Positions 21,910-47,898 of a stretch of DNA of 64,000 bases are shown here, in pieces. The stretch lies in NCBI GenBank assembly GCA_965367295.1, contig CBDUHN010000010.1, positions 2,906 through 66,905 on the forward strand, in the 5' to 3' direction. The notes beneath the pieces are model-generated. The model saw only the letters and a list, made by a program, of their open reading frames with translations, did not search any database and was not told where the DNA came from. Made by a program: the position numbers and the translations under genes. Within the stretch, counting starts at the first letter, position 1, and the number at the start of each line of letters is the position of its first letter. This DNA is from an uncultured Gammaproteobacteria bacterium (GTDB lineage: Bacteria; Pseudomonadota; Gammaproteobacteria; DSM-19610).

Positions 21910-23088
21910 CTACATTCGGAACTGGGCCATGAGGGCCTGCTGCTGCGACGACAGGCGGGCCAGTTCTTCACTGGCACTGGCGGTCTGTTGCGCACCGGCA
22001 GCCACCTGATCCGACACCTCGCGAATGCTGGCAATGGAATTGCTGATCTCCGCCGAAACGGCACTCTGTTCTTCCGCCGCACTGGCGATCTGGGCATTCA
22101 TATCGTTGATGCCCGACACCGAACCAGCGATATACGCCAGCGACTCCGCCGCCTTTTCCACCTGGTCGACGCTGTTCTGAGCCTGGGAACGGGCCTGCTC
22201 CATGACCTGCACCGCATCCACGGCACCCACCTGCAGGCGCTCGATCATCTGCTGGATTTCCTGGGTGGATTTCTGGGTACGGCTGGCCAGGGTACGGACC
22301 TCGTCGGCCACCACGGCAAAACCACGTCCCTGCTCGCCGGCACGGGCCGCCTCGATGGCCGCGTTGAGCGCCAGTAGATTGGTCTGTTCGGCAATTCCGC
22401 GGATCACATCCAGCACCATGCCGATGTTCTCGGTTTCCTGTTCCAGCTTCTGGATAACCTTGGCAGCCTTCTCGACTTCACCGACCAGCGAGTCAATGCC
22501 CCCAATGGCCTCGGTAGCGACCAGGGCGCCCGCCTTGGCTTCGCTGTCGGCCTCGCTGGCTGACTCGGCGGCCACCGCCGCGCTGCGCGCCACGTCCTGT
22601 ACCGAAGAGCTCATTTCACTCATGGCCATGGCCACCTGCTCCACATCGGCCTGCTGTTTCTGAACACCCCGGTTGGCCTCGTCGGTAATGGCCGACATCT
22701 CTTCCGCGGCGGCCGCAAGCTGGGTGGTGGAGCCGCTGATCTGCCCCATTATGTTACGCAGGTTCTCGGCCATCAGATTGAAGCTGGTCACGATCTCGCC
22801 AATCAGGTCATGACTTACCATGCTGCAATGATGAGACACATCGTGATTGCTGATGGCCGTGGCGATCTCGGAGATGCGCCGCAGCTTGCGCAGCAGAATC
22901 ACATTCACCAGCCAGTAATTGGCCGCCCCCAACGCGACACCCGCGGTCAGCGCACCAACCGTGAACCAGCCGAACATGCCCTCTTTCCAGTCGACAAAGA
23001 AGCCGGCGAAGAAGGGAAACACCACCCCCATCAACAGCCCGAAGCCGATGGATGCCAGCATCAGATTTCTCAATATACTCGGTTTCAT
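21910..23088 (-). CDS. Methyl-accepting chemotaxis protein with a TM hairpin and HAMP domain but no periplasmic ligand-binding domain
   Basis: The conserved signalling hairpin is present (..[37 protein letters not shown]..). Two N-terminal TM helices are joined by a loop of about 6 residues. Confidence 0.9.
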
Positions 23089-24690: not shown

Positions 24691-26166
24691 TCAGAACTTC
24701 CATGCGTAGCTGACTTCCAGGGCATTCTGATCCATCCCGATCTCGGTATCGTAGGTCGGAGTACCGAAACCCGGGAACGGCGTGCTATAGCGGTAGGTCT
24801 GGTCCACATTGAAGGCACGCATATAGGCTACCGTGACTTCGTTGTTCTCGGTCGGACGATAGCTGAAGCCCAGGGTCAGGTGGGTTTCCACCACACCGGG
24901 TGCCAGGATGTTGAACAGGTTTTCCTTGTCATCAATCGGGTTGTCACCATGATTGATCCCGGCACGCAGAGTCCACTTGTCGTTGTATTCGTAGTTGAAG
25001 CCCAACTTGTAGATGGTGATGTCATCCCAGCCGAAACCCCAGCCACTGCTGGTACCCAGCGGATTGCTGACCCCGAATGCGGTGCCGCCATTGAACATGG
25101 CACCGCCGTCGGACGTCTGCGAAGTCAGCACCGCCGCGAAGGCTTCCAGAAACTCGGCTGCCGTCGGACCCGGATTGGAGATGGAATTGACGCCACTGTA
25201 GAGGATCCGCTGCACATCGAAGGCCACGGTCAGTTTGTCATTAGGCTGGAATGCGATACCGATGGCGTAATTGGCCGGGATATCAAAATCACCATTCTCG
25301 GCGAACAGGCCCGCGTAATTGTCGAATTCCTGCATGTAGATCTTGGATGCTGCACTGGCACCCACGGTCAGGGTATCGGTGACCTTGCCACGCCAGCCGA
25401 TCTTCACACCGGCACCGTAGGATTCGTCATCCCCGTTGTTGGTCACATTCGAGGGGTCGCTGGAGAAGCCCTTGAACATGCCCAGGCCGTAGGCGCGGAA
25501 ACGCTGTGCTGCGATCTGCAACGAAGCACCGATGGCGTGGTTTTCGCTCAGCTTGTAGGACACCGTGGGTGAAAGAATCAACTGGGAGAGGTTCACACCC
25601 AGAGTGGATGCCAGACTGCCATCCACTGCCGGATTGAAACCAGCCGCGACTGCAGCAACCGCATCCGCATCAGGATCACCAGGACCACCGTAGCCCGCTA
25701 CGAAGGCTGGCACGAAGGCTGTACCCAGTGCGGGAGCAAACGCATTGAAGTAATGATTGTCGTTGTGGCGGGTATTCATCCCACCGTTGGCCGCCATCGT
25801 AAGGCCAACCGCCATTTGCGGTGAAAACTGCATCACCATGCCACCATGCGGGATCGCGAACAGTGTTGCCGCGCTGTCACCGCTGGAGGCAGCCCCCCCC
25901 ATCAGGGTCGCATCCAGGGACGCATCACGATTCGGGTTAAACAGTTCGATACCGGCATCGGCACGATTACCCACGTCGATGATGGTAGCCGGGTTTACCA
26001 CGCCCGCCATGGCATCCTGACCGTAGGCCACACCGGCACCGGCCATACCCCGGTTGTGCGAGCCATAGCCGATCTTGAAATATCCATTGGTGGCATGGGC
26101 CGCCGGGGCCACCAATGCCGCTGAAACTGCCATCGTGGCCAGCGAACGCTTGAAAGTGCGATTCAT
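24691..26166 (-). CDS. FadL/TodX (OMPP1) family outer-membrane channel, long form, paralogue A
   Basis: It has a signal peptide ending AHA. The mature N-terminus TNGYFKIGYGSHNRGMAGAG is typical of the family, and the C-terminal barrel signature is ..LEVSYAWKF. It is clearly paralogous to 55901..57268. Confidence 0.85.
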   Translation of the reverse strand: MNRTFKRSLATMAVSAALVAPAAHATNGYFKIGYGSHNRGMAGAGVAYGQDAMAGVVNPATIIDVGNRADAGIELFNPNRDASLDATLMGGAASSGDSAATLFAIPHGGMVMQFSPQMAVGLTMAANGGMNTRHNDNHYFNAFAPALGTAFVPAFVAGYGGPGDPDADAVAAVAAGFNPAVDGSLASTLGVNLSQLILSPTVSYKLSENHAIGASLQIAAQRFRAYGLGMFKGFSSDPSNVTNNGDDESYGAGVKIGWRGKVTDTLTVGASAASKIYMQEFDNYAGLFAENGDFDIPANYAIGIAFQPNDKLTVAFDVQRILYSGVNSISNPGPTAAEFLEAFAAVLTSQTSDGGAMFNGGTAFGVSNPLGTSSGWGFGWDDITIYKLGFNYEYNDKWTLRAGINHGDNPIDDKENLFNILAPGVVETHLTLGFSYRPTENNEVTVAYMRAFNVDQTYRYSTPFPGFGTPTYDTEIGMDQNALEVSYAWKF

Positions 26167-26412
26167 ATCTCCATTCCTCTCGATTTTTGATGCGGAAGCG
26201 CTTTTTGTTGCAAAATAACAACAACCCCTGTGGCGCTCACCACAGCATGGCGATGCGCCTGAAAATTGTCAATATTTCATGGATAAGCAACAGCCATGCC
26301 AATTTGACATGAAGAATGCCCAAGTCCGCGTATCAGGAATACAACAACAGCTGACCTTTCGCGACAGGTGTGCTTGAATGGGCCCGCCCCACTATAGAAT
26401 GAGGAAAGCACA

Positions 26413-27750
26413 GTGAGAATCTCAGGAGCCCTTTTCCGCCTCACCGCCAAACATTTGACTATTGCCAGTCTGGCCTGCCTGACAACCCCCGGCTACGGTG
26501 CCGGGTTTGCCTTGATTGAACAAAGTGGCAGCGGTCTTGGAAATGCCTTCGCCGGTGCCGCCGCCAGCGCGGAGGATGCCACCACCATTTTCTTCAACCC
26601 GGCGGGCATGACCCGTCTGCGCGGCAGCCAGTTCATCGTGGCCGGCCATCTCGTCAAACCATCGGCTGAATTCAACGGCAGTGCGGCCGATCCGCTCGGT
26701 AACCCTATCTCCGGCGGCAATGGCAGCGATGCCGGTCACCTCGCCCTGATTCCGAATCTCTACTACAGTCGAGAACTATCGAACCAGCTGCGCTTCGGCC
26801 TGGGCATCAATGCCCCCTTCGGGTTGAAGACCGAATATGATGCCGACTGGGTGGGCCGCTATCACGCCATCGAATCCGACCTGAAAACCGTCAATATCAA
26901 CCCTGCCCTCGCCTTCCAGGCCACGCCGAAGCTGTCACTGGGTTTCGGCGTCAATATTCAGTACATCGAAGCGACCCTGAGTCAGGCCGTCAACCAGGCC
27001 ATTTCCTGCGGTGGTCTGGTGCTGGCAAGTGTATTGACGCCAGCCAATTGCGCCGGTGTGAGCGGCGACCTGACCGCAGAAGTGAATGGTGATGACTGGG
27101 GTTACGGTTATAACTTCGGCTTGCTGTATGAATTCAGCCCTGAAGCACGACTGGGTTTTGCCTATCGCTCCAAAATTACCCAGACGCTGGAGGGGGATGC
27201 ATCCTTCTCTGGAACCAATGCGGTTTTTACCGCCATCGGCTTCTTCACGCCAACCAGCGTAACGGCTGGCATCAGCTTGCCGGAGAGTGCTTCGTTGAGC
27301 CTGTATAAGGATCTCAATTCACAATGGGCTCTACTCGCCGATGCCACCTGGACCCGCTGGAGCCGTTTCCAGGAACTGCGCATCGATTTCGCCTCGAACC
27401 AGCCGGACAGCGTCACGATCGAGGACTGGGATGACAGCATGCGTTACTCGATCGGCGTGAACTACCGCCATAACAGCAGCTGGCTGCTCCGCGCAGGGAT
27501 TGCCTATGACGAAGAACCCATCCCCAGCGCAGCACGCCGCACCCCACGCATCCCCGGCAATGACCGTACCTGGCTGGCTGTGGGCGCCAATTACCGGTAT
27601 TCCTCACGCCTGTCATTCGATGCGGGATATGCACACCTGTTCGTGGATGACACGTCCATCGCCCATGCCAGCACCACCGCCGGCACCATCACCGGTGAGT
27701 ATGACAACTCCGTGGATATCCTGAGCGGACAGGTGAACTGGACTTTTTAA
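26413..27750 (+). CDS. FadL/TodX family outer-membrane transport protein (canonical length)
   Basis: It has a GTG start with GAGGA 7 nt upstream. GAGFALIEQSGSGLGNAFAGAAA is the family N-terminal hatch motif. The C-terminus is ..SGQVNWTF. Confidence 0.85.
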   Translation: MRISGALFRLTAKHLTIASLACLTTPGYGAGFALIEQSGSGLGNAFAGAAASAEDATTIFFNPAGMTRLRGSQFIVAGHLVKPSAEFNGSAADPLGNPISGGNGSDAGHLALIPNLYYSRELSNQLRFGLGINAPFGLKTEYDADWVGRYHAIESDLKTVNINPALAFQATPKLSLGFGVNIQYIEATLSQAVNQAISCGGLVLASVLTPANCAGVSGDLTAEVNGDDWGYGYNFGLLYEFSPEARLGFAYRSKITQTLEGDASFSGTNAVFTAIGFFTPTSVTAGISLPESASLSLYKDLNSQWALLADATWTRWSRFQELRIDFASNQPDSVTIEDWDDSMRYSIGVNYRHNSSWLLRAGIAYDEEPIPSAARRTPRIPGNDRTWLAVGANYRYSSRLSFDAGYAHLFVDDTSIAHASTTAGTITGEYDNSVDILSGQVNWTF

Positions 27751-43011: not shown

Positions 43012-43414
43012 GGGAAAGTTCCTGGAAAATGAAATCGGGGATGGAATGCGGGCGAAGGGTTGCGGCGTCCAGGCAGGCAATACGCACCGATGCGGTGCAG
43101 AATACGCGCCCGGGATCGTCGGCATCATAGACCGACTGGGAAAACACCAGGCTGGCGCGGCGGCATTCTGCCACTTCCGCGGTCACTAGCAAAGCATCAT
43201 CCAGTCGCGCGGGTTTGAGAAACTCCGTCTCGGCCGATCGCACGGCAAACAAAACCCCCTGTTCGCGGCTCAGGGCATGCTGTTCGACGCCCATACTGCG
43301 CAGGCGCTCGGTACGTGCCCGCTCCATGAACCGCAGGTAATTGGCGTAATACACCACGCCGCCGGAATCCGTGTCTTCGTAATACACGCGCACCGGCCAT
43401 GTAAAAATCGACAC
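43001..43414 (-). CDS. ybgC: Tol-Pal-associated acyl-CoA thioesterase YbgC
   Basis: ..FTWPVRVYYEDTDSGGVVYYANYLRFMERARTE.. closely matches E. coli YbgC. The GTG start at 43414 is preferred; an ATG at 43489 is possible. Confidence 0.85.
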   Translation of the reverse strand: MSIFTWPVRVYYEDTDSGGVVYYANYLRFMERARTERLRSMGVEQHALSREQGVLFAVRSAETEFLKPARLDDALLVTAEVAECRRASLVFSQSVYDADDPGRVFCTASVRIACLDAATLRPHSIPDFIFQELSRGR

Positions 43415-43499
43415 CTTGCTGTGTATCCCTGTCAATGACCGCAAACCTGCGGAAAAATTCCCGAAATATCGGGGGATGGACCGCACCAAGGGCTATAGC

Positions 43500-43766
43500 T
43501 TACCGTTGCGCAGGCGGGGCATCCAGCGCTGCTTGAAATTCCAGGGAATTGAGTTGTCCATCACGGTCATGATCGGCATGCTGGAAAGACCTCCTGCTTG
43601 CCACCCGGCCGTCCAGCTCACCTGCGGAAATATAGCCATCCCGGTTGTAATCCAGAATATCGAAACGCGCCTGGGGAAACCCGTCATCGGATTGCTGAAA
43701 TAACGGCACGGCCAGGGTCCCAACGGCCAACACCAGGATCAAATGGAAGCTACGAAGACTGCGCAT
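43500..43766 (-). CDS. Secreted EF-hand calcium-binding protein (two EF loops), copy 2
   Basis: It has a signal peptide (MRSLRSFHLILVLAVGTLA) and two canonical 12-residue loops, DYNRDGYISAGE and DHDRDGQLNSLE. Confidence 0.75.
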   Translation of the reverse strand: MRSLRSFHLILVLAVGTLAVPLFQQSDDGFPQARFDILDYNRDGYISAGELDGRVASRRSFQHADHDRDGQLNSLEFQAALDAPPAQR

Positions 43767-43903
43767 GCTGATAAATTCCGTTATCCGTCAGAAAAAGGCT
43801 CAAACAAAAAAAAGCGTGGCAAGCGCCACGCAGAAAATCCCATTGGGATTCAGAAGGTACAAACAACGCACAAACACAGGAGAAGAATTTCACTCGGACG
43901 GAA

Positions 43904-44167
43904 TTATTCTCCGCCGACTTGCGGCAGTGCCGCGGCGAGTTCTGCCGGATTCAGCTGACCATCCCGGTCCCGGTCGGCAGCATCAAAGCCCTGCACCAGT
44001 CCCGTAATGGATCGCGCCTCAGCGCGGCTCACCGTGCCGTTCTGATCGCTGTCGAGCTGCTTGAACACCATGGGATCCCGTGCGGGATCCATACCCCACA
44101 TACCGGCCCAGGCAGCATTGGCAACGGTCATCAGACTCAACGCAGCAATACCAAATGGTTCTTTCAT
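43904..44167 (-). CDS. Secreted EF-hand calcium-binding protein (two EF loops), copy 1
   Basis: The ATG at 44167 has GGAGGTG 5 nt upstream. The product has a signal peptide (MKEPFGIAALSLMTVANAAWA) and the loops DSDQNGTVSRAE and DRDRDGQLNPAE. Confidence 0.75.
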   Translation of the reverse strand: MKEPFGIAALSLMTVANAAWAGMWGMDPARDPMVFKQLDSDQNGTVSRAEARSITGLVQGFDAADRDRDGQLNPAELAAALPQVGGE

Positions 44168-44336
44168 CGCACCTCCTTCACGGGACTCCCGCATTGGAAA
44201 ATAGAAGGCGGTAGTCCCGTGCCGGCCTTGGGCGCCATTCCGTCGGCTCTCCGTTCGGCGCGGCCCGGGGTACCGCTGGAGGGAATAGAGCAAGGGCTAT
44301 GCCAGCCGTCAGCTAAGTAATAGTAAACAGTGTATT

Positions 44337-44352
44337 AGCGGGAAAATTGCCA
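44337..44352 (-). promoter_or_regulatory. Candidate sigma-54 (-24/-12) promoter reading toward the EF-hand genes
   Basis: The minus-strand sequence is TGGCAATTTTCCCGCT. The GG and GC sit at the spacing of the consensus TGGCAC-N5-TTGCW. The element lies about 170 nt upstream of ATG 44167 and downstream of a sigma-54 activator gene. Confidence 0.45.
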
Positions 44353-44380
44353 TTCAGGCGGCAGCCGAACCGGACCAATC

Positions 44381-44398
44381 TGTCACTCCCTGGCGACA
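44381..44398. promoter_or_regulatory. Perfect TGTC-N10-GACA palindrome (GlrR-type activator site), with two further CGACAG half-sites upstream
   Basis: TGTCactccctggcGACA lies at 44381..44398. CGACAG is repeated at 44461..44466 and 44480..44485. Confidence 0.4.
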
Positions 44399-44561
44399 GA
44401 CAAAAAGGGGATTGGAAGGGAAATGTAATCCTTGCAGGAAGTTAGCACGTTGCCATTCGCCGACAGACTTGGAAACAACCGACAGGGGCATTCGCGCAGA
44501 ACTGACAAGACAGGGTACGCACATCAAATGACGCGCCGGCAAGGGCCGGGCGGCCGCTACT

Positions 44562-45926
44562 CTAGCCGCGCGCCTCTTTGAACTGCGCAGGCTGCAGGTG
44601 GTGTTTGTGCAGCAGTTTGTAGAACTCGGTACGGTTGCGCTTGGCGATGCGGGCGGCATGGGTCACGTTGCCATTGGTGATCTGCAGCAACTGGGTGAGG
44701 TAATCGCGCTCGAACTGGCTGCGGGCATCGGCAAAGGCCATGATCTCACCGGACTTGTCACGCAGCGCCCGCTGCACCAGGCTGGCGGGGATCAGCGGCG
44801 TGGTGGAAAAGGCCACCGCCTGCTCCACCACGTTGTAGAACTGGCGCACGTTGCCGGGCCAGGGGGCCGCCAGTAGCAGTTCCATGGCCTCCGGCGCAAA
44901 ACCCTTGATGCGTTTCCGGCCGGTGCTGGAGATCTGTTCCAGAAAATAACTGGCCAGGAGCGGAATATCTTCGCGCCGCTCCGCCAGGGTCGGCAGTTCC
45001 AGCGTCACCACATTGAGGCGATAGTACAGGTCCTCGCGGAACTCACCCTCTTCCAGGGCCTCGTCGAGATCGCGGTGTGTGGCGGAAATGATCCGCACAT
45101 CCACCTCCACGGAATGGGTCGAACCCACCGGCCGCACCGTGCGCTCCTGCAGGGCACGCAGTAATTTCACCTGAAAACTGAGCGGCATATCGCCGATCTC
45201 ATCCAGGAACAGCGTGCCGCCATGGGCGGCCTGAAACAGCCCCTTGTGCTCACGGTTGGCGCCGGTAAAGGCCCCCCGGGCATGCCCGAACAGCTCGGAT
45301 TCCATCAGGGATTCGGGGATAGCACTGCAATTCACCGCCACAAACGGCCCTTCGCTGCGCGGACTCGCCTTGTGCACCGCCCGCGCCAGCAGTTCCTTGC
45401 CGGTACCACTCTGGCCATGAATGAATACGCTGGCATCGCTCTCGGCGATCAGCCGCGCCTGCCCCAGCAGGTCTTCCATCACCGGGCTGCGGGTCACAAT
45501 ATCGCGGCGCCACTCGGCATGCAGATCCTGTTGTCCGCCCAACCGGGTTTCACCACTCACCTTCAGCGCACGATCCACCTGGGTCAACAGCACCTGGCTG
45601 TCGAAGGGTTTGGTGAGAAAACTGAACACCCCCTTGCTGGTGGCATCCACGGCATCGGGAATAGTGCCATGGGCAGTGAGAATCACCACCGGCAGGGCCG
45701 GACTGCGGGCATGAATCATGTCAAACAGGGTCATACCGTCCATGCCGCCCATGCGCAGGTCGGTAATCACCAAGTGAGGGCGAAACACCGACAGCTGCGC
45801 CAGCGCCTGTTCGCCGCCTTCCACCGCCGCCACTTCATAACCCGCTGCCGACAGACGCATGGACAGCAGCCGCAACAGGCCACGATCGTCATCTACCAAT
45901 AGAATTCGGTACCTGGAGGCACTCAT
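44562..45926 (-). CDS. Sigma-54-dependent response regulator (NtrC family, GlrR/QseF-like)
   Basis: It has a receiver domain (ILLVDDD.. and ..VITDLRMGGMDG), an AAA+ domain with GESGTGKE-like GQSGTGKELLA and the GAFTGA motif, and a C-terminal Fis-type HTH. Confidence 0.9.
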   Translation of the reverse strand: MSASRYRILLVDDDRGLLRLLSMRLSAAGYEVAAVEGGEQALAQLSVFRPHLVITDLRMGGMDGMTLFDMIHARSPALPVVILTAHGTIPDAVDATSKGVFSFLTKPFDSQVLLTQVDRALKVSGETRLGGQQDLHAEWRRDIVTRSPVMEDLLGQARLIAESDASVFIHGQSGTGKELLARAVHKASPRSEGPFVAVNCSAIPESLMESELFGHARGAFTGANREHKGLFQAAHGGTLFLDEIGDMPLSFQVKLLRALQERTVRPVGSTHSVEVDVRIISATHRDLDEALEEGEFREDLYYRLNVVTLELPTLAERREDIPLLASYFLEQISSTGRKRIKGFAPEAMELLLAAPWPGNVRQFYNVVEQAVAFSTTPLIPASLVQRALRDKSGEIMAFADARSQFERDYLTQLLQITNGNVTHAARIAKRNRTEFYKLLHKHHLQPAQFKEARG

Positions 45927-46456
45927 GGCTTCACTCCCTGCAGCGCCTTCTGGCGCTGTTTGATGCTTTGTTCGATGGAGGTCACTGCCTCCAGCTGGGT
46001 TTCCAGTTCCTGAATGCGGCTGTCCCGCTCGGCCACGACCTTGCGTTCATCACGCAACTGCCCCAGCGCCCATTGTTTTTCCTGCAACTGCTGCTTCAGC
46101 AGTTTGACCAGTACCGCCGCGTCAGCGCCCATGAGCAAGGGGTCGATTTCGTCCAGCAGTGCCAGCGCCGCCGTATCATTGCGCACCTCCTCGCCCCCCA
46201 GGGCGCGTACCAGCGCCAGGCGCAGCCGGGTAACGGTCGTGGCCTCGTTGCGGTAGGCATGCTGCCGGGCCCGCAGGGCCGCAGCCTGCTCCTCTGCGGG
46301 CAGCTGCTGTACCTGGCGCACCTCGTCCAGCCAGTCCGGCCCACTAATGCGTCCGGACAGTTCTGTCAGTGTTACCGGGGGCCGCGGCTGCCATTGGGCA
46401 CAGCCCGCCATGGCCAACAACAGGCCGCCGGCCATCACCACGCGCAAGCCGATCAT
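45923..46456 (-). CDS. Lipoprotein encoded between the kinase and regulator genes (positional equivalent of QseG/YfhG)
   Basis: It has the lipobox LLAMAGC and a C-terminal coiled coil. ATGA start/stop overlaps join it to both neighbours. No sequence family was recognised beyond its position. Confidence 0.6.
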   Translation of the reverse strand: MIGLRVVMAGGLLLAMAGCAQWQPRPPVTLTELSGRISGPDWLDEVRQVQQLPAEEQAAALRARQHAYRNEATTVTRLRLALVRALGGEEVRNDTAALALLDEIDPLLMGADAAVLVKLLKQQLQEKQWALGQLRDERKVVAERDSRIQELETQLEAVTSIEQSIKQRQKALQGVKP

Positions 46457-47898
46457 CCCGTTGCCTTTTCCTTGGGCAGGGTAATGCGCAGACAGGCACC
46501 GGGAGCACCACAGTCGACCACTTCGATCCGGCCACCATGGGCCTGCACAAATTCCTTGGCGATAGAAAGTCCCAATCCTGTTCCCCTGATATGACTGTTA
46601 CTGCTGTGTTGCCCTTGATAAAAGGCCTCGAACACCCGCTCGCGGTCGGTATCCGGTATCCCTGCGCCGGTATCCATCACCTCAAGCTGCGCGGCAGAAC
46701 CGGTATCCTCGAGCGCGACAGTTACGGTACCACCCTCGGGCGCGAATTTCGCCGCGTTGGACAACAGATTATCCACCACGGTACGAATTTTCTCCTCATC
46801 CCCCGCCACTTCCACCGCTTCCAGGTGGCACTCCAGCCGCAGGTGACGGGCCAGCAGGGCCATTTTATGGTCTGCCAGCACCTCTTCCACCAATGGCTTC
46901 AGGGCTACGGGACGATACATCATCACCGCACTGCGTGCTGTAGCCATGCTCACATTCAGCAGATCCTCGATGAGTTTCTGCAGCTGCACGGTGTTTTCCT
47001 GCAGGATCTCGGCGATCTCGCGCTGCTGGGCATTGAGCTTGCCCACCACTTCTTCGCCCAGCAGCCCCGCGCCCTCGCGGATGGCGGTCAGCGGGGTCTT
47101 GAGCTCGTGGGAGATATGGCGCAGGAATTTGGTCTTTTCCGCCTCCAGCTCCTGCAGCCGTACCCGCAGCCACTCCAGCCGTTCACCCAGCTGTTCCAGG
47201 TCCCGCGGGCCACGAATGGTCAGCGGCGCCGCCAGTTCCTCGTTGCCCAGTCGCCGGATGGCATGATCCAGCTGGCGCATGGGGCGTGCGATCAGGGCTG
47301 CGAAGATACCGGTCAGCAGCAGCGCCGCCGGCACCAACGCCACCGCCTGCAGCACCAGTACCCGCTGGGTTTTCTGGGCGGTACTCTGCATGGCTTCCAC
47401 CTCGCGCTGGATGCCCTTTTGACTCTGGGATAAAAACTGCTCCGCCAGCACGGCCAAGGCCGCAAACCGTTCCACATCCACAGTGGTTTTCGGTTCCTGG
47501 GCGACCTGATCGGCCAGCTGCCGATACATGGTCCACTCCTCCACTTCCAGCTGATCGAGCAGGGTGCGCTGGGGCACGGACAGGGGCAGATCCTGGAGAA
47601 TCTTCACCGTGCTCTGGAAGATCTCGTGATTTTCCGCATACACCTCGTACAGCGCCGGTTCGCCCAGCACCTGGTACTGGCGCGCATTGCGCTCCATGGC
47701 GGTGATAGCCTCCACCAGTCCCTGACTGTTCTGGGTCGCCTGTACCGCCTGGTAGACCGCCCGCTGGCTCTGGTTTGCAAGCCGGTCAACGGACAGGGCC
47801 GCATTCACCAGTGCCACCATCAACGGTACCGCGACCAGACCAAAGCCGATCAGGATCAGACGCAGAATGGATTTGGGTCGGTAGAGTCGCACACGCAT
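46453..47898 (-). CDS. Sensor histidine kinase (two TM, periplasmic helical domain, HAMP, HisKA, HATPase; GlrK/QseE-like)
   Basis: The H-box is FLRHISHELKTPLTAI. The N and G boxes are ..NLLSNAAKF.. and ..DTGAGIP.. with ..GTGLGLSIAKE... Confidence 0.88.
   Translation of the reverse strand: MRVRLYRPKSILRLILIGFGLVAVPLMVALVNAALSVDRLANQSQRAVYQAVQATQNSQGLVEAITAMERNARQYQVLGEPALYEVYAENHEIFQSTVKILQDLPLSVPQRTLLDQLEVEEWTMYRQLADQVAQEPKTTVDVERFAALAVLAEQFLSQSQKGIQREVEAMQSTAQKTQRVLVLQAVALVPAALLLTGIFAALIARPMRQLDHAIRRLGNEELAAPLTIRGPRDLEQLGERLEWLRVRLQELEAEKTKFLRHISHELKTPLTAIREGAGLLGEEVVGKLNAQQREIAEILQENTVQLQKLIEDLLNVSMATARSAVMMYRPVALKPLVEEVLADHKMALLARHLRLECHLEAVEVAGDEEKIRTVVDNLLSNAAKFAPEGGTVTVALEDTGSAAQLEVMDTGAGIPDTDRERVFEAFYQGQHSSNSHIRGTGLGLSIAKEFVQAHGGRIEVVDCGAPGACLRITLPKEKATG

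Follow-up and report, generated by a model that had tools for sequence, protein, structure and literature searches.

A putative GlrR-type sigma-54-dependent control region for an EF-hand gene, with a candidate 3' UTR-embedded small RNA, in an uncultured gammaproteobacterium

INTRODUCTION

Control of the glmY promoter by GlrR/QseF and sigma-54 was reportedly described by Reichenbach et al. in 2009. Chao and Vogel are said to have found in 2016 that, in Salmonella and E. coli, the small RNA (sRNA) CpxQ is cut from the 3' untranslated region (3' UTR) of the cpxP message. In Pseudomonas aeruginosa, the two-component system CarSR is associated with CarO/CarP and with the EF-hand protein EfhP, and its regulator, CarR, is of the OmpR type and sigma-70 dependent. 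Here we analyze a stretch of 64,000 nucleotides (the window) of contig CBDUHN010000010.1, from an uncultured gammaproteobacterium, in which an operon for a GlrK/GlrR-like system is followed by a 394-bp interval and two EF-hand genes. The GlrK/GlrR system, which makes the sRNA GlmY in enterobacteria, appears to have a different output at this locus. DsrC neighbors and a Thiogranum relative suggest that the host is a non-enteric, apparently sulfur-oxidizer-related gammaproteobacterium.

The glmY promoters of Enterobacteriaceae, and the glmZ promoter of Yersinia, are controlled by GlrR/QseF together with sigma-54 and IHF (Goepel et al. 2011, PMC3045617). According to PMC6075780, QseF and sigma-54 also activate the E. 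coli rpoE P2 promoter; the papers found in a literature search treat QseE/QseF (GlrK/GlrR) as an enterobacterial system, with glmY, glmZ (in some species) and rpoE as direct targets. The same search returned no paper that connects EF-hand proteins with GlrR or QseF.

RESULTS

Predicted promoter and activator sites

The minus strand of the window carries, in order, the genes for a kinase, a lipoprotein-like protein and a regulator, a 394-bp gap, the EF-hand 1 gene, a terminator, the EF-hand 2 gene and ybgC-tolQRA. We conclude that the 394-bp interval is likely a GlrR(QseF)-type sigma-54-dependent control region, whose transcript would be an EF-hand mRNA with an sRNA embedded in its 3' UTR. Judged by sequence comparison, the interval contains a real, conserved regulatory module. 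The initial annotation of this DNA, which had placed a sigma-54 promoter and a GlrR-type palindrome between the regulator gene and the EF-hand genes, was right in outline but located the promoter 48 bp too far upstream. The predicted parts of the module and of its transcript are as follows.

44448..44465, unstranded: degenerate distal activator site, which reads TGTCGGCGAATGGCAACG on the minus strand, identified by weight matrix, spacing and partial conservation
44381..44398, unstranded: proximal activator site, a perfect TGTC-N10-GACA (TGTCactccctggcGACA) and the top weight-matrix match
44311..44350, unstranded: AT-rich spacer with an IHF-like site, 60-70% A+T in a window of 60% G+C, overlapping the promoter candidate first proposed at 44337..44352
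44289..44304, minus strand: sigma-54 promoter TGGCATagcccTTGCT, with the -24 GG at 44303/44302 and the -12 GC at 44291/44290
44168..44278, minus strand: predicted 5' leader of about 111 nt, its start deduced from the -12 spacing and a conserved CCAG
43904..44167, minus strand: EF-hand protein 1, 87 amino acids (aa), with Pfam EF-hand_5, EF-hand_6 and EF-hand_1 above cut-offs
43806..43891, minus strand: conserved 3' element of about 85 nt, a candidate 3' UTR-embedded sRNA judged by fold, covariation and conservation

The proximal site is the sole exact TGTC-N10-GACA within the 64-kb window. With about 1.0 such copy expected there by chance, no conclusion can be drawn from the match by itself, as the initial annotation argued when it reported this palindrome. 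A weight matrix was built from 39 sites in other GlrR-orthologue loci only, with the extended consensus TGTCGCC-N4-GGCGACA. Over the whole window, this matrix ranked the proximal site first (16.2 bits) and the distal site fourth (12.5 bits). The distal site starts 67 bp upstream of the proximal site start, matching the spacing in orthologue loci, and the two sites start 161 and 94 bp, respectively, upstream of the promoter start. Both CGACAG half-sites that had been pointed out earlier (44461..44466 and 44480..44485) are present. The former falls inside the distal site, but the latter lies in no conserved site; it was rejected as part of a site because it scores poorly with the matrix, is unconserved and is polymorphic within the species at position 44480. 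Within-species differences in the 394-bp interval occur only at 44500, 44480 and 44469, all outside the islands of conservation described below. Matrix matches at 22680 and 26206 were rejected as modules, since they are not upstream of a sigma-54 element on the same strand. Directly after the distal site lies the motif AAGTT(C/T)CCG (AACTTCCTG at 44440..44447 of the window), which is conserved in the window and in the related loci L167, L168 and L171.

The predicted promoter, TGGCATAGCCCTTGCT at 44304..44289 of the minus strand, has one mismatch to the consensus TGGCAC-N5-TTGCW. With up to one mismatch allowed, this consensus has five matches in 128 kb of strand, the present element included. 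The spacer contains an IHF-like match at 44325..44337, with one mismatch to WATCAR-N4-TTR, and would bend the DNA. The transcription start site (TSS) is predicted at about 44278-44276 instead of near 44325, as had been expected earlier. No sigma-70-like promoter was found in 43300..44700. The initial annotation had also allowed for an sRNA or leader element encoded in the 5' region. The fold of the leader is not significantly stable compared with shuffled sequences (z = -1.42), and the leader is not conserved across the clade, being kept in L171 and deleted in L167 and L168. The leader was therefore rejected as a riboswitch or sRNA.

Elsewhere in the window, a second consensus-like sigma-54 element, TGGCATGGCTGTTGCT, occupies an intergenic position at 26286..26301 of the minus strand, 120 nt upstream of a Shine-Dalgarno sequence and ATG. 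The gene behind it encodes a FadL/TodX-family outer-membrane protein (24691..26166, minus strand), with a divergent paralogue at 26413..27750. No GlrR-type site was found upstream of this element.

Close relatives

A protein search followed by contig look-ups gave eleven clade loci, the window included, with regulators 74 to 93% identical. DNA comparisons were made on the ten that came with DNA and share this gene context (regulators 76 to 92% identical), with the P0014 locus left out. All ten share one layout, in which the distal site is followed after 65 to 67 bp by the proximal site and after a further 92 to 104 bp by the promoter, and all ten have TGGCA(T/C)-N5-TTGC(T/A) at the equivalent position.

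The interval itself was aligned among the four closest loci (the window, L167, L168 and L171), whose regulators are 88 to 92% identical and whose 4-fold degenerate sites are only 60 to 69% identical. Islands of identity in this alignment coincide with both activator sites, the -24/-12 element and CCAG at the predicted +1; the promoter core TGGCAT-N3-CCTTGC is identical in all four. Further islands cover the last ~85 nt before the U-run of the terminator and the start of the second open reading frame (ORF). The flanks of the islands are unalignable.

Orthologues of the EF-hand 1 ORF occupy the same position in L169, L172, L176, L177 and the P0014 locus, whereas the ORF is absent from L167, L168, L170/L171, L174 and L175. 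The five of eleven clade loci that have lost the ORF keep the sites, the promoter and the 3' element. At least three different deletions are involved, as L167, L168 and L171 differ in their end points and L174 and L175 belong to separate lineages. Where the ORF is missing, the terminator follows the promoter after about 120 to 410 nt, and the predicted transcripts are 120 to 165 nt long in three of the five.

The kinase-lipoprotein-regulator operon

The operon upstream of the module comprises three minus-strand genes.

46453..47898, minus strand: sensor histidine kinase, GlrK/QseE-like, 481 aa, with HAMP, HisKA and HATPase_c domains
45923..46456, minus strand: small lipoprotein-like gene in the qseG/yfhG position, 177 aa, with a lipobox-like ..LAMAGC in its translation
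44562..45926, minus strand: NtrC-type sigma-54 activator, GlrR/QseF orthologue, 454 aa, with receiver, sigma-54 AAA+ and helix-turn-helix domains

The ATGA overlaps reported earlier between the kinase and lipoprotein genes and between the lipoprotein and regulator genes were found in the sequence, as were the 53 nt between ruvB and the kinase gene. Compared over its full length, the kinase shares 31% identity with the Xenorhabdus kinase whose gene is beside glmY. The lipoprotein-like product matched no Pfam or NCBIfam family. It shows weak similarity (E = 9e-6) to the product of the equivalently placed Sulfuriferula gene, and its BLASTP comparison with Xenorhabdus YfhG was not significant (E = 0.52). 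Homology to QseG was thus not demonstrable.

The top NCBIfam model for the regulator was GlrR at 639 bits, ahead of the next family at 421 bits but below the curated GlrR equivalog cut-off of 763, and we therefore call the protein GlrR-like. The regulator shares 59% full-length identity with Xenorhabdus GlrR, with an almost unchanged helix-turn-helix, and the two proteins have the recognition helix NVTHAARxAxRNRTEFYKLL in common. Its sequence contains GAFTGA at residue 218 and Asp56 within ..VITDLRM.., and relatives 74 to 92% identical to it are annotated as GlrR by JGI. The earlier reading of the operon as a GlrKR-like system agrees with the top family model and with the identity to Xenorhabdus GlrR. 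Assignment of the operon as GlrK/lipoprotein/GlrR-like is supported by these sequence comparisons.

Candidate 3' RNA element

The 3' UTR of the predicted EF-hand 1 transcript contains a conserved RNA-like element that the initial annotation missed. Its parts, all on the minus strand, are listed in 5' to 3' order.

43882..43877, minus strand: CUCCUG
43871..43857, minus strand: hairpin A
43851..43835, minus strand: hairpin B (AAUCCC/GGGAUU; core UCCC/GGGA)
43831..43814, minus strand: terminator
43813..43806, minus strand: U-run

The terminator has a 7-bp stem with six G-C pairs, followed by U8. In the window the element folds as three tandem hairpins (z = -4.21), and all ten clade copies, each folded alone, also give three tandem hairpins, with z values from -2.2 to -6.6. 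CUCCUG is invariant and single-stranded in all eight alignable copies. Identity across the element is 0.76 to 0.91, compared with 0.60 to 0.69 at 4-fold degenerate sites of the regulator gene.

Covariation was assessed on a manual alignment and on a covariance-model alignment; MAFFT misplaced hairpins A and B, and an N-padded manual version was discarded. The manual structural alignment showed compensatory changes at every pair of hairpin A and at five of seven terminator pairs. In the covariance-model alignment, 10 of the 13 pairs of hairpin A and the terminator change on both sides, and 97.9% of cells are paired. None of 500 shuffles reached the observed value, and slid controls scored far lower. 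A covariance-model search of 42 sources recovered the element at the expected place only, in eight loci. It picked up no further copy in the window, nor any copy in distant orthologue loci. Rfam gave no match for the element, and neither GlmY nor GlmZ (RF00128/RF00083) was detected in 43300..44700 even at an E value of ≤10; the RNA is therefore not a member of a known family. With its end at the mRNA terminator, its stable fold and its conservation above neutral, the element has the sequence features of a 3' UTR-derived sRNA. CUCCUG might base-pair with ribosome-binding sites, and it would match every Shine-Dalgarno sequence.

EF-hand genes

The EF-hand 1 protein has a signal-peptide-like N terminus, which predicts a periplasmic location, and two canonical 12-residue loops, DSDQNGTVSRAE and DRDRDGQLNPAE. 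Its ATG is preceded at 7 nt by AAGGAGG. The second EF-hand gene follows the terminator.

43500..43766, minus strand: EF-hand protein 2, 88 aa, with Pfam EF-hand_5, EF-hand_6 and EF-hand_1 above cut-offs

EF-hand 2 also has two canonical loops, DYNRDGYISAGE and DHDRDGQLNSLE, and the paired loops of both ORFs are of the DxDxDGxIxxxE type, as would be expected of calcium-binding proteins. The initial annotation had proposed that the output of the system is a downstream transcript carrying both EF-hand genes. The adjacent transcript, rather than a glmY-like gene ahead of the kinase gene, stands as the predicted output, but a strong terminator precedes EF-hand 2, which is probably not a direct target of the promoter. 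EF-hand 2 homologues in L167 (5749-5898), L168 (5767-5934) and L171 (2077-2256) encode only 52 to 59 aa, with both EF loops lost and the signal peptide and C terminus retained. The gene is absent in L169, L172 and L175-L177. Given the loopless EF-hand 2 homologues and the losses of the EF-hand 1 ORF, both EF-hand genes seem to be decaying in this lineage.

In nine of ten clade loci, GG(A/T)TGC-N17/18-CCGGTAAGCTAT is found just upstream of ybgC. In the window it spans 43545..43490 of the minus strand and overlaps the last codons and stop of the EF-hand 2 ORF; elsewhere it lies at L167:5894, L168:5930, L171:2252, L169:6024, L172:5119, L175:4260, L176:4550 and L177:4482. This element may be a promoter or operator of ybgC-tolQRA, and such an overlapping DNA element would explain the conserved EF-hand 2 C terminus LDAxPxxR.

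Predicted targets of other GlrR orthologues

Genome and metagenome collections were scanned with the regulator as query, which gave 33 loci with 46 to 66% identity. A module was defined as a sigma-54 element (GG and GC fixed, at most two mismatches) with at least one TGTC-N10-GACA (at most one mismatch) on the same strand, the site starting 40 to 260 bp upstream of the promoter start. The 330 kb of orthologue loci contained 32 modules, against 20 in loci of other sigma-54 regulators, which span 1165 kb. With the window counted, a module is present in about 25 of the 34 orthologue loci, either directly behind the regulator gene or directly ahead of the kinase gene. Typically, the two sites of these modules are 63 to 68 bp apart, and the promoter starts 80 to 138 bp after the start of the proximal site. 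In the positive control, Xenorhabdus, three perfect sites and a sigma-54 element are followed by a GlmY match at 142.7 bits; among 11 orthologue loci searched with Rfam, GlmY in Xenorhabdus was the only match.

A check put forward with the initial annotation was whether the motifs and EF-hand genes co-occur downstream of glrR orthologues. Sites and promoter do follow glrR in many orthologue loci, and EF-hand genes are a recurrent target. EF-hand genes are one of several predicted outputs of the module, which are listed below by locus label.

Small EF-hand proteins: the window, L003 (Sulfuriferula), L005, L089 and L093
BON/OsmY-like proteins: L002, L101 and the downstream genes of L003
OpgG: L007
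Bactofilin-domain protein, divergent from the kinase gene: L010
Conserved 55- to 57-aa protein: L001, L088 and L091
ORF-less, terminator-ended RNAs: L008 and L097
GlmY: L011 by Rfam; L013 and L094-L096 by resemblance to L011 only

The two commonest protein targets are linked in Sulfuriferula (L003:7584-9013), where an EF-hand gene, an EF-hand and BON fusion and a BON gene follow the module. The beta-proteobacterial 55- to 57-aa ORF (..PEF..FWL...LEELAERVNAARSVV; L001:7573-7746, L088:6646-6816, L091:5467-5634) belongs to no Pfam family. The terminator loop in L001 and L088, UUCCUCCC, is CU-rich and reminiscent of CUCCUG in the window. L008 (7427-7585) and L097 (2354-2530) contain no plausible ORF and have a strong terminator about 150 to 175 nt after GlrR sites and a sigma-54 promoter. 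Their RNAs are candidates for GlrR-dependent sRNAs in Burkholderiales-type genomes. L008 had no Rfam match at the gathering score, and neither L008 nor L097 matched our covariance model.

DISCUSSION

The data suggest the following mechanism. In response to a signal from the periplasm or envelope, the kinase, with its lipoprotein partner, would phosphorylate the regulator, which would bind one face of the helix at a strong site (44381..44398) and a weak one (44448..44465). Across the AT-rich, IHF-like spacer, the activator would loop to the sigma-54 holoenzyme at TGGCAT-N5-TTGCT (44304..44289, minus strand). ATP hydrolysis would then open the promoter, with transcription starting near 44278-44276. 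The transcript would comprise a leader of ~111 nt and the gene for the 87-aa secreted EF-hand protein and would end at the terminator at 43831..43814. Its last ~85 nt, consisting of single-stranded CUCCUG, two hairpins and the terminator with its U-tail, would form the 3' UTR-embedded small RNA, and in relatives without the ORF this module would be the sole product of the promoter. Our confidence differs among the parts: the promoter module is highly probable, and it is very likely that the EF-hand 1 gene is its direct target in this genome. We put the chances that the 3' element is a functional sRNA at even.

Several observations weigh against this mechanism. The regulator scores below the curated cut-off for GlrR, as noted above. 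The distal site has two mismatches in its GACA half, and the IHF-like site, itself imperfect, is oriented opposite to the AATCAG found at a similar place in relatives. The arrangement is not universal in the clade: in L173 (1-7368), whose regulator is 75% identical, the operon has different neighbors (DsrC, an encapsulated-ferritin-like gene and a SPOR protein), and a scan confined to the interval upstream of the kinase found no module. The source organism is known only from metagenome assemblies. As for the RNA, the covariance model failed to find L169 and L172 at an E value of ≤1. Both covariation alignments lean towards structure, and the terminator would covary regardless; hairpin B gives no structural information because its core never varies.

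Other explanations of the locus were weighed against these data. The string TGGCAATTTTCCCGCT that the initial annotation took for the promoter is indeed present at 44352..44337 of the minus strand; both its intergenic location and its orientation fit, and its GG-N10-GC spacing is correct. Had it been the promoter, transcription would start near 44325 and the half-sites at 44461-44485 would serve as enhancers 110 to 135 bp away. Yet it has three mismatches to the consensus, with CCCGCT in the -12 region instead of TTGCW, and is one of 28 comparably loose GG-N10-GC matches in the window. It also begins just 46 bp past the proximal site start, compared with 80 to 138 bp in orthologues, and is unconserved in L167, L168 and L171, three loci that share a block of identity at the 44304..44289 element. 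A promoter role for TGGCAATTTTCCCGCT is consequently extremely unlikely. It is very unlikely, too, that the motif cluster is non-regulatory and that EF-hand 1 is expressed by read-through from the operon or from an unrecognized sigma-70 promoter. A single palindrome is at chance level for 64 kb, and a terminator and promoter scan of the region detected no terminator between the regulator gene and the promoter, so that read-through could add to expression, a further point against sole control by the module. This account must contend with sites, spacing and promoter kept in ten of ten clade loci, with the module in most orthologue loci, with islands of conservation that coincide with the motifs amid unalignable flanks, and with the failure to find a sigma-70-like promoter in the region scanned.

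Granting the sigma-54 promoter, one may still doubt the RNA. The 3' element could be a terminator with mRNA-stabilizing hairpins and the ORF-less loci decaying remnants, a reading that we consider possible but not favored. Terminators covary without any function in trans, the core of hairpin B is invariant, the element is limited to one clade, and the EF-hand genes of that clade are clearly decaying, as the EF-hand 2 remnants show. The three or more separate ORF deletions argue otherwise, since retention of sites, promoter and element in all of them is not expected of a dead locus. Also unexplained by a terminator alone are the invariance and single-strandedness of CUCCUG and an identity above that of 4-fold sites (0.82 to 0.91 versus 0.68), and the short transcripts predicted for three of the five ORF-less loci speak against mere remnants. 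Alternatively, the promoter might mainly feed the ybgC-tolQRA-tolB envelope operon, with the EF-hand gene and hairpins as passengers or an attenuator. The module is directly upstream of ybgC-tolQRA in 10 of 11 clade loci, and GlrKR/QseEF is linked to the E. coli cell envelope (PMC6075780). A strong terminator ends the transcript in every locus, however, the conserved GGxTGC-N17/18-CCGGTAAGCTAT before ybgC may be that operon's own promoter, and beta-proteobacterial modules drive unrelated genes away from tol. We regard this possibility as quite unlikely. An EF-hand mRNA with an embedded sRNA, expressed from the GlrR-type module, thus remains our preferred reading.

The same logic of regulator, sites and promoter is seen in gamma- and beta-proteobacteria, with differing adjacent targets. 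The module offers a testable handle on what GlrK/GlrR senses and controls outside enterics, and the site matrix can be used for regulon prediction in any genome with the operon. The 3' element is a candidate for a new sRNA family whose promoter and regulator are defined. More tentatively, and with somewhat less than even odds in our view, non-enterobacterial GlrK/GlrR systems may carry their own, non-homologous sigma-54-dependent sRNAs beside the operon. The family here would then have an invariant anti-Shine-Dalgarno-like CUCCUG and would occur in the 3' UTR of a periplasmic EF-hand protein's mRNA or, where the ORF was lost, free-standing. The path from two-component system through adjacent sigma-54 promoter to sRNA would be ancestral, and GlmY would be only its enterobacterial instance. 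The recurrent EF-hand, BON and OpgG targets would in that case connect the system with ion or osmotic homeostasis in the periplasm.

The closest described counterparts of this locus are the glmY promoters. In both cases, an orthologous kinase-lipoprotein-regulator operon adjoins the target, TGTC-N10-GACA sites lie upstream of a TGGCAC-N5-TTGC promoter with an AT-rich spacer between them that here holds a possible IHF site, and the product includes, here by prediction, a small structured RNA ending in a terminator. The promoter-proximal sites are 67 bp apart here, and ABS2 and ABS3 are 63 bp apart in Xenorhabdus and Arsenophonus. Unlike at glmY, the target is downstream of glrR instead of upstream of glrK, there are two sites instead of three, no overlapping sigma-70 promoter was found, and the predicted transcript encodes a protein. 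The RNA element of the window also has no detectable similarity to GlmY/GlmZ and is not placed in their families by Rfam.

The rpoE P2 promoter resembles the present one as a sigma-54 promoter through which the same regulator family would control a protein-coding, envelope-related target. It differs in that rpoE is not adjacent to the operon there; the target gene here is a different one, and no rpoE is involved. With cpxP/CpxQ, the locus shares an envelope two-component system, an mRNA for a small, predicted periplasmic protein and a conserved, terminator-ended 3' UTR as the would-be sRNA. Here, unlike in the case of CpxQ, control would be by sigma-54 and a GlrR-like regulator, and the RNA stands alone behind the promoter in some relatives. 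As in P. aeruginosa CarSR/EfhP, small secreted calcium-binding or calcium-responsive proteins would be under the control of a two-component system. The window regulator, in contrast, has no sequence relationship to CarR, and the comparison does not extend to calcium as the signal.

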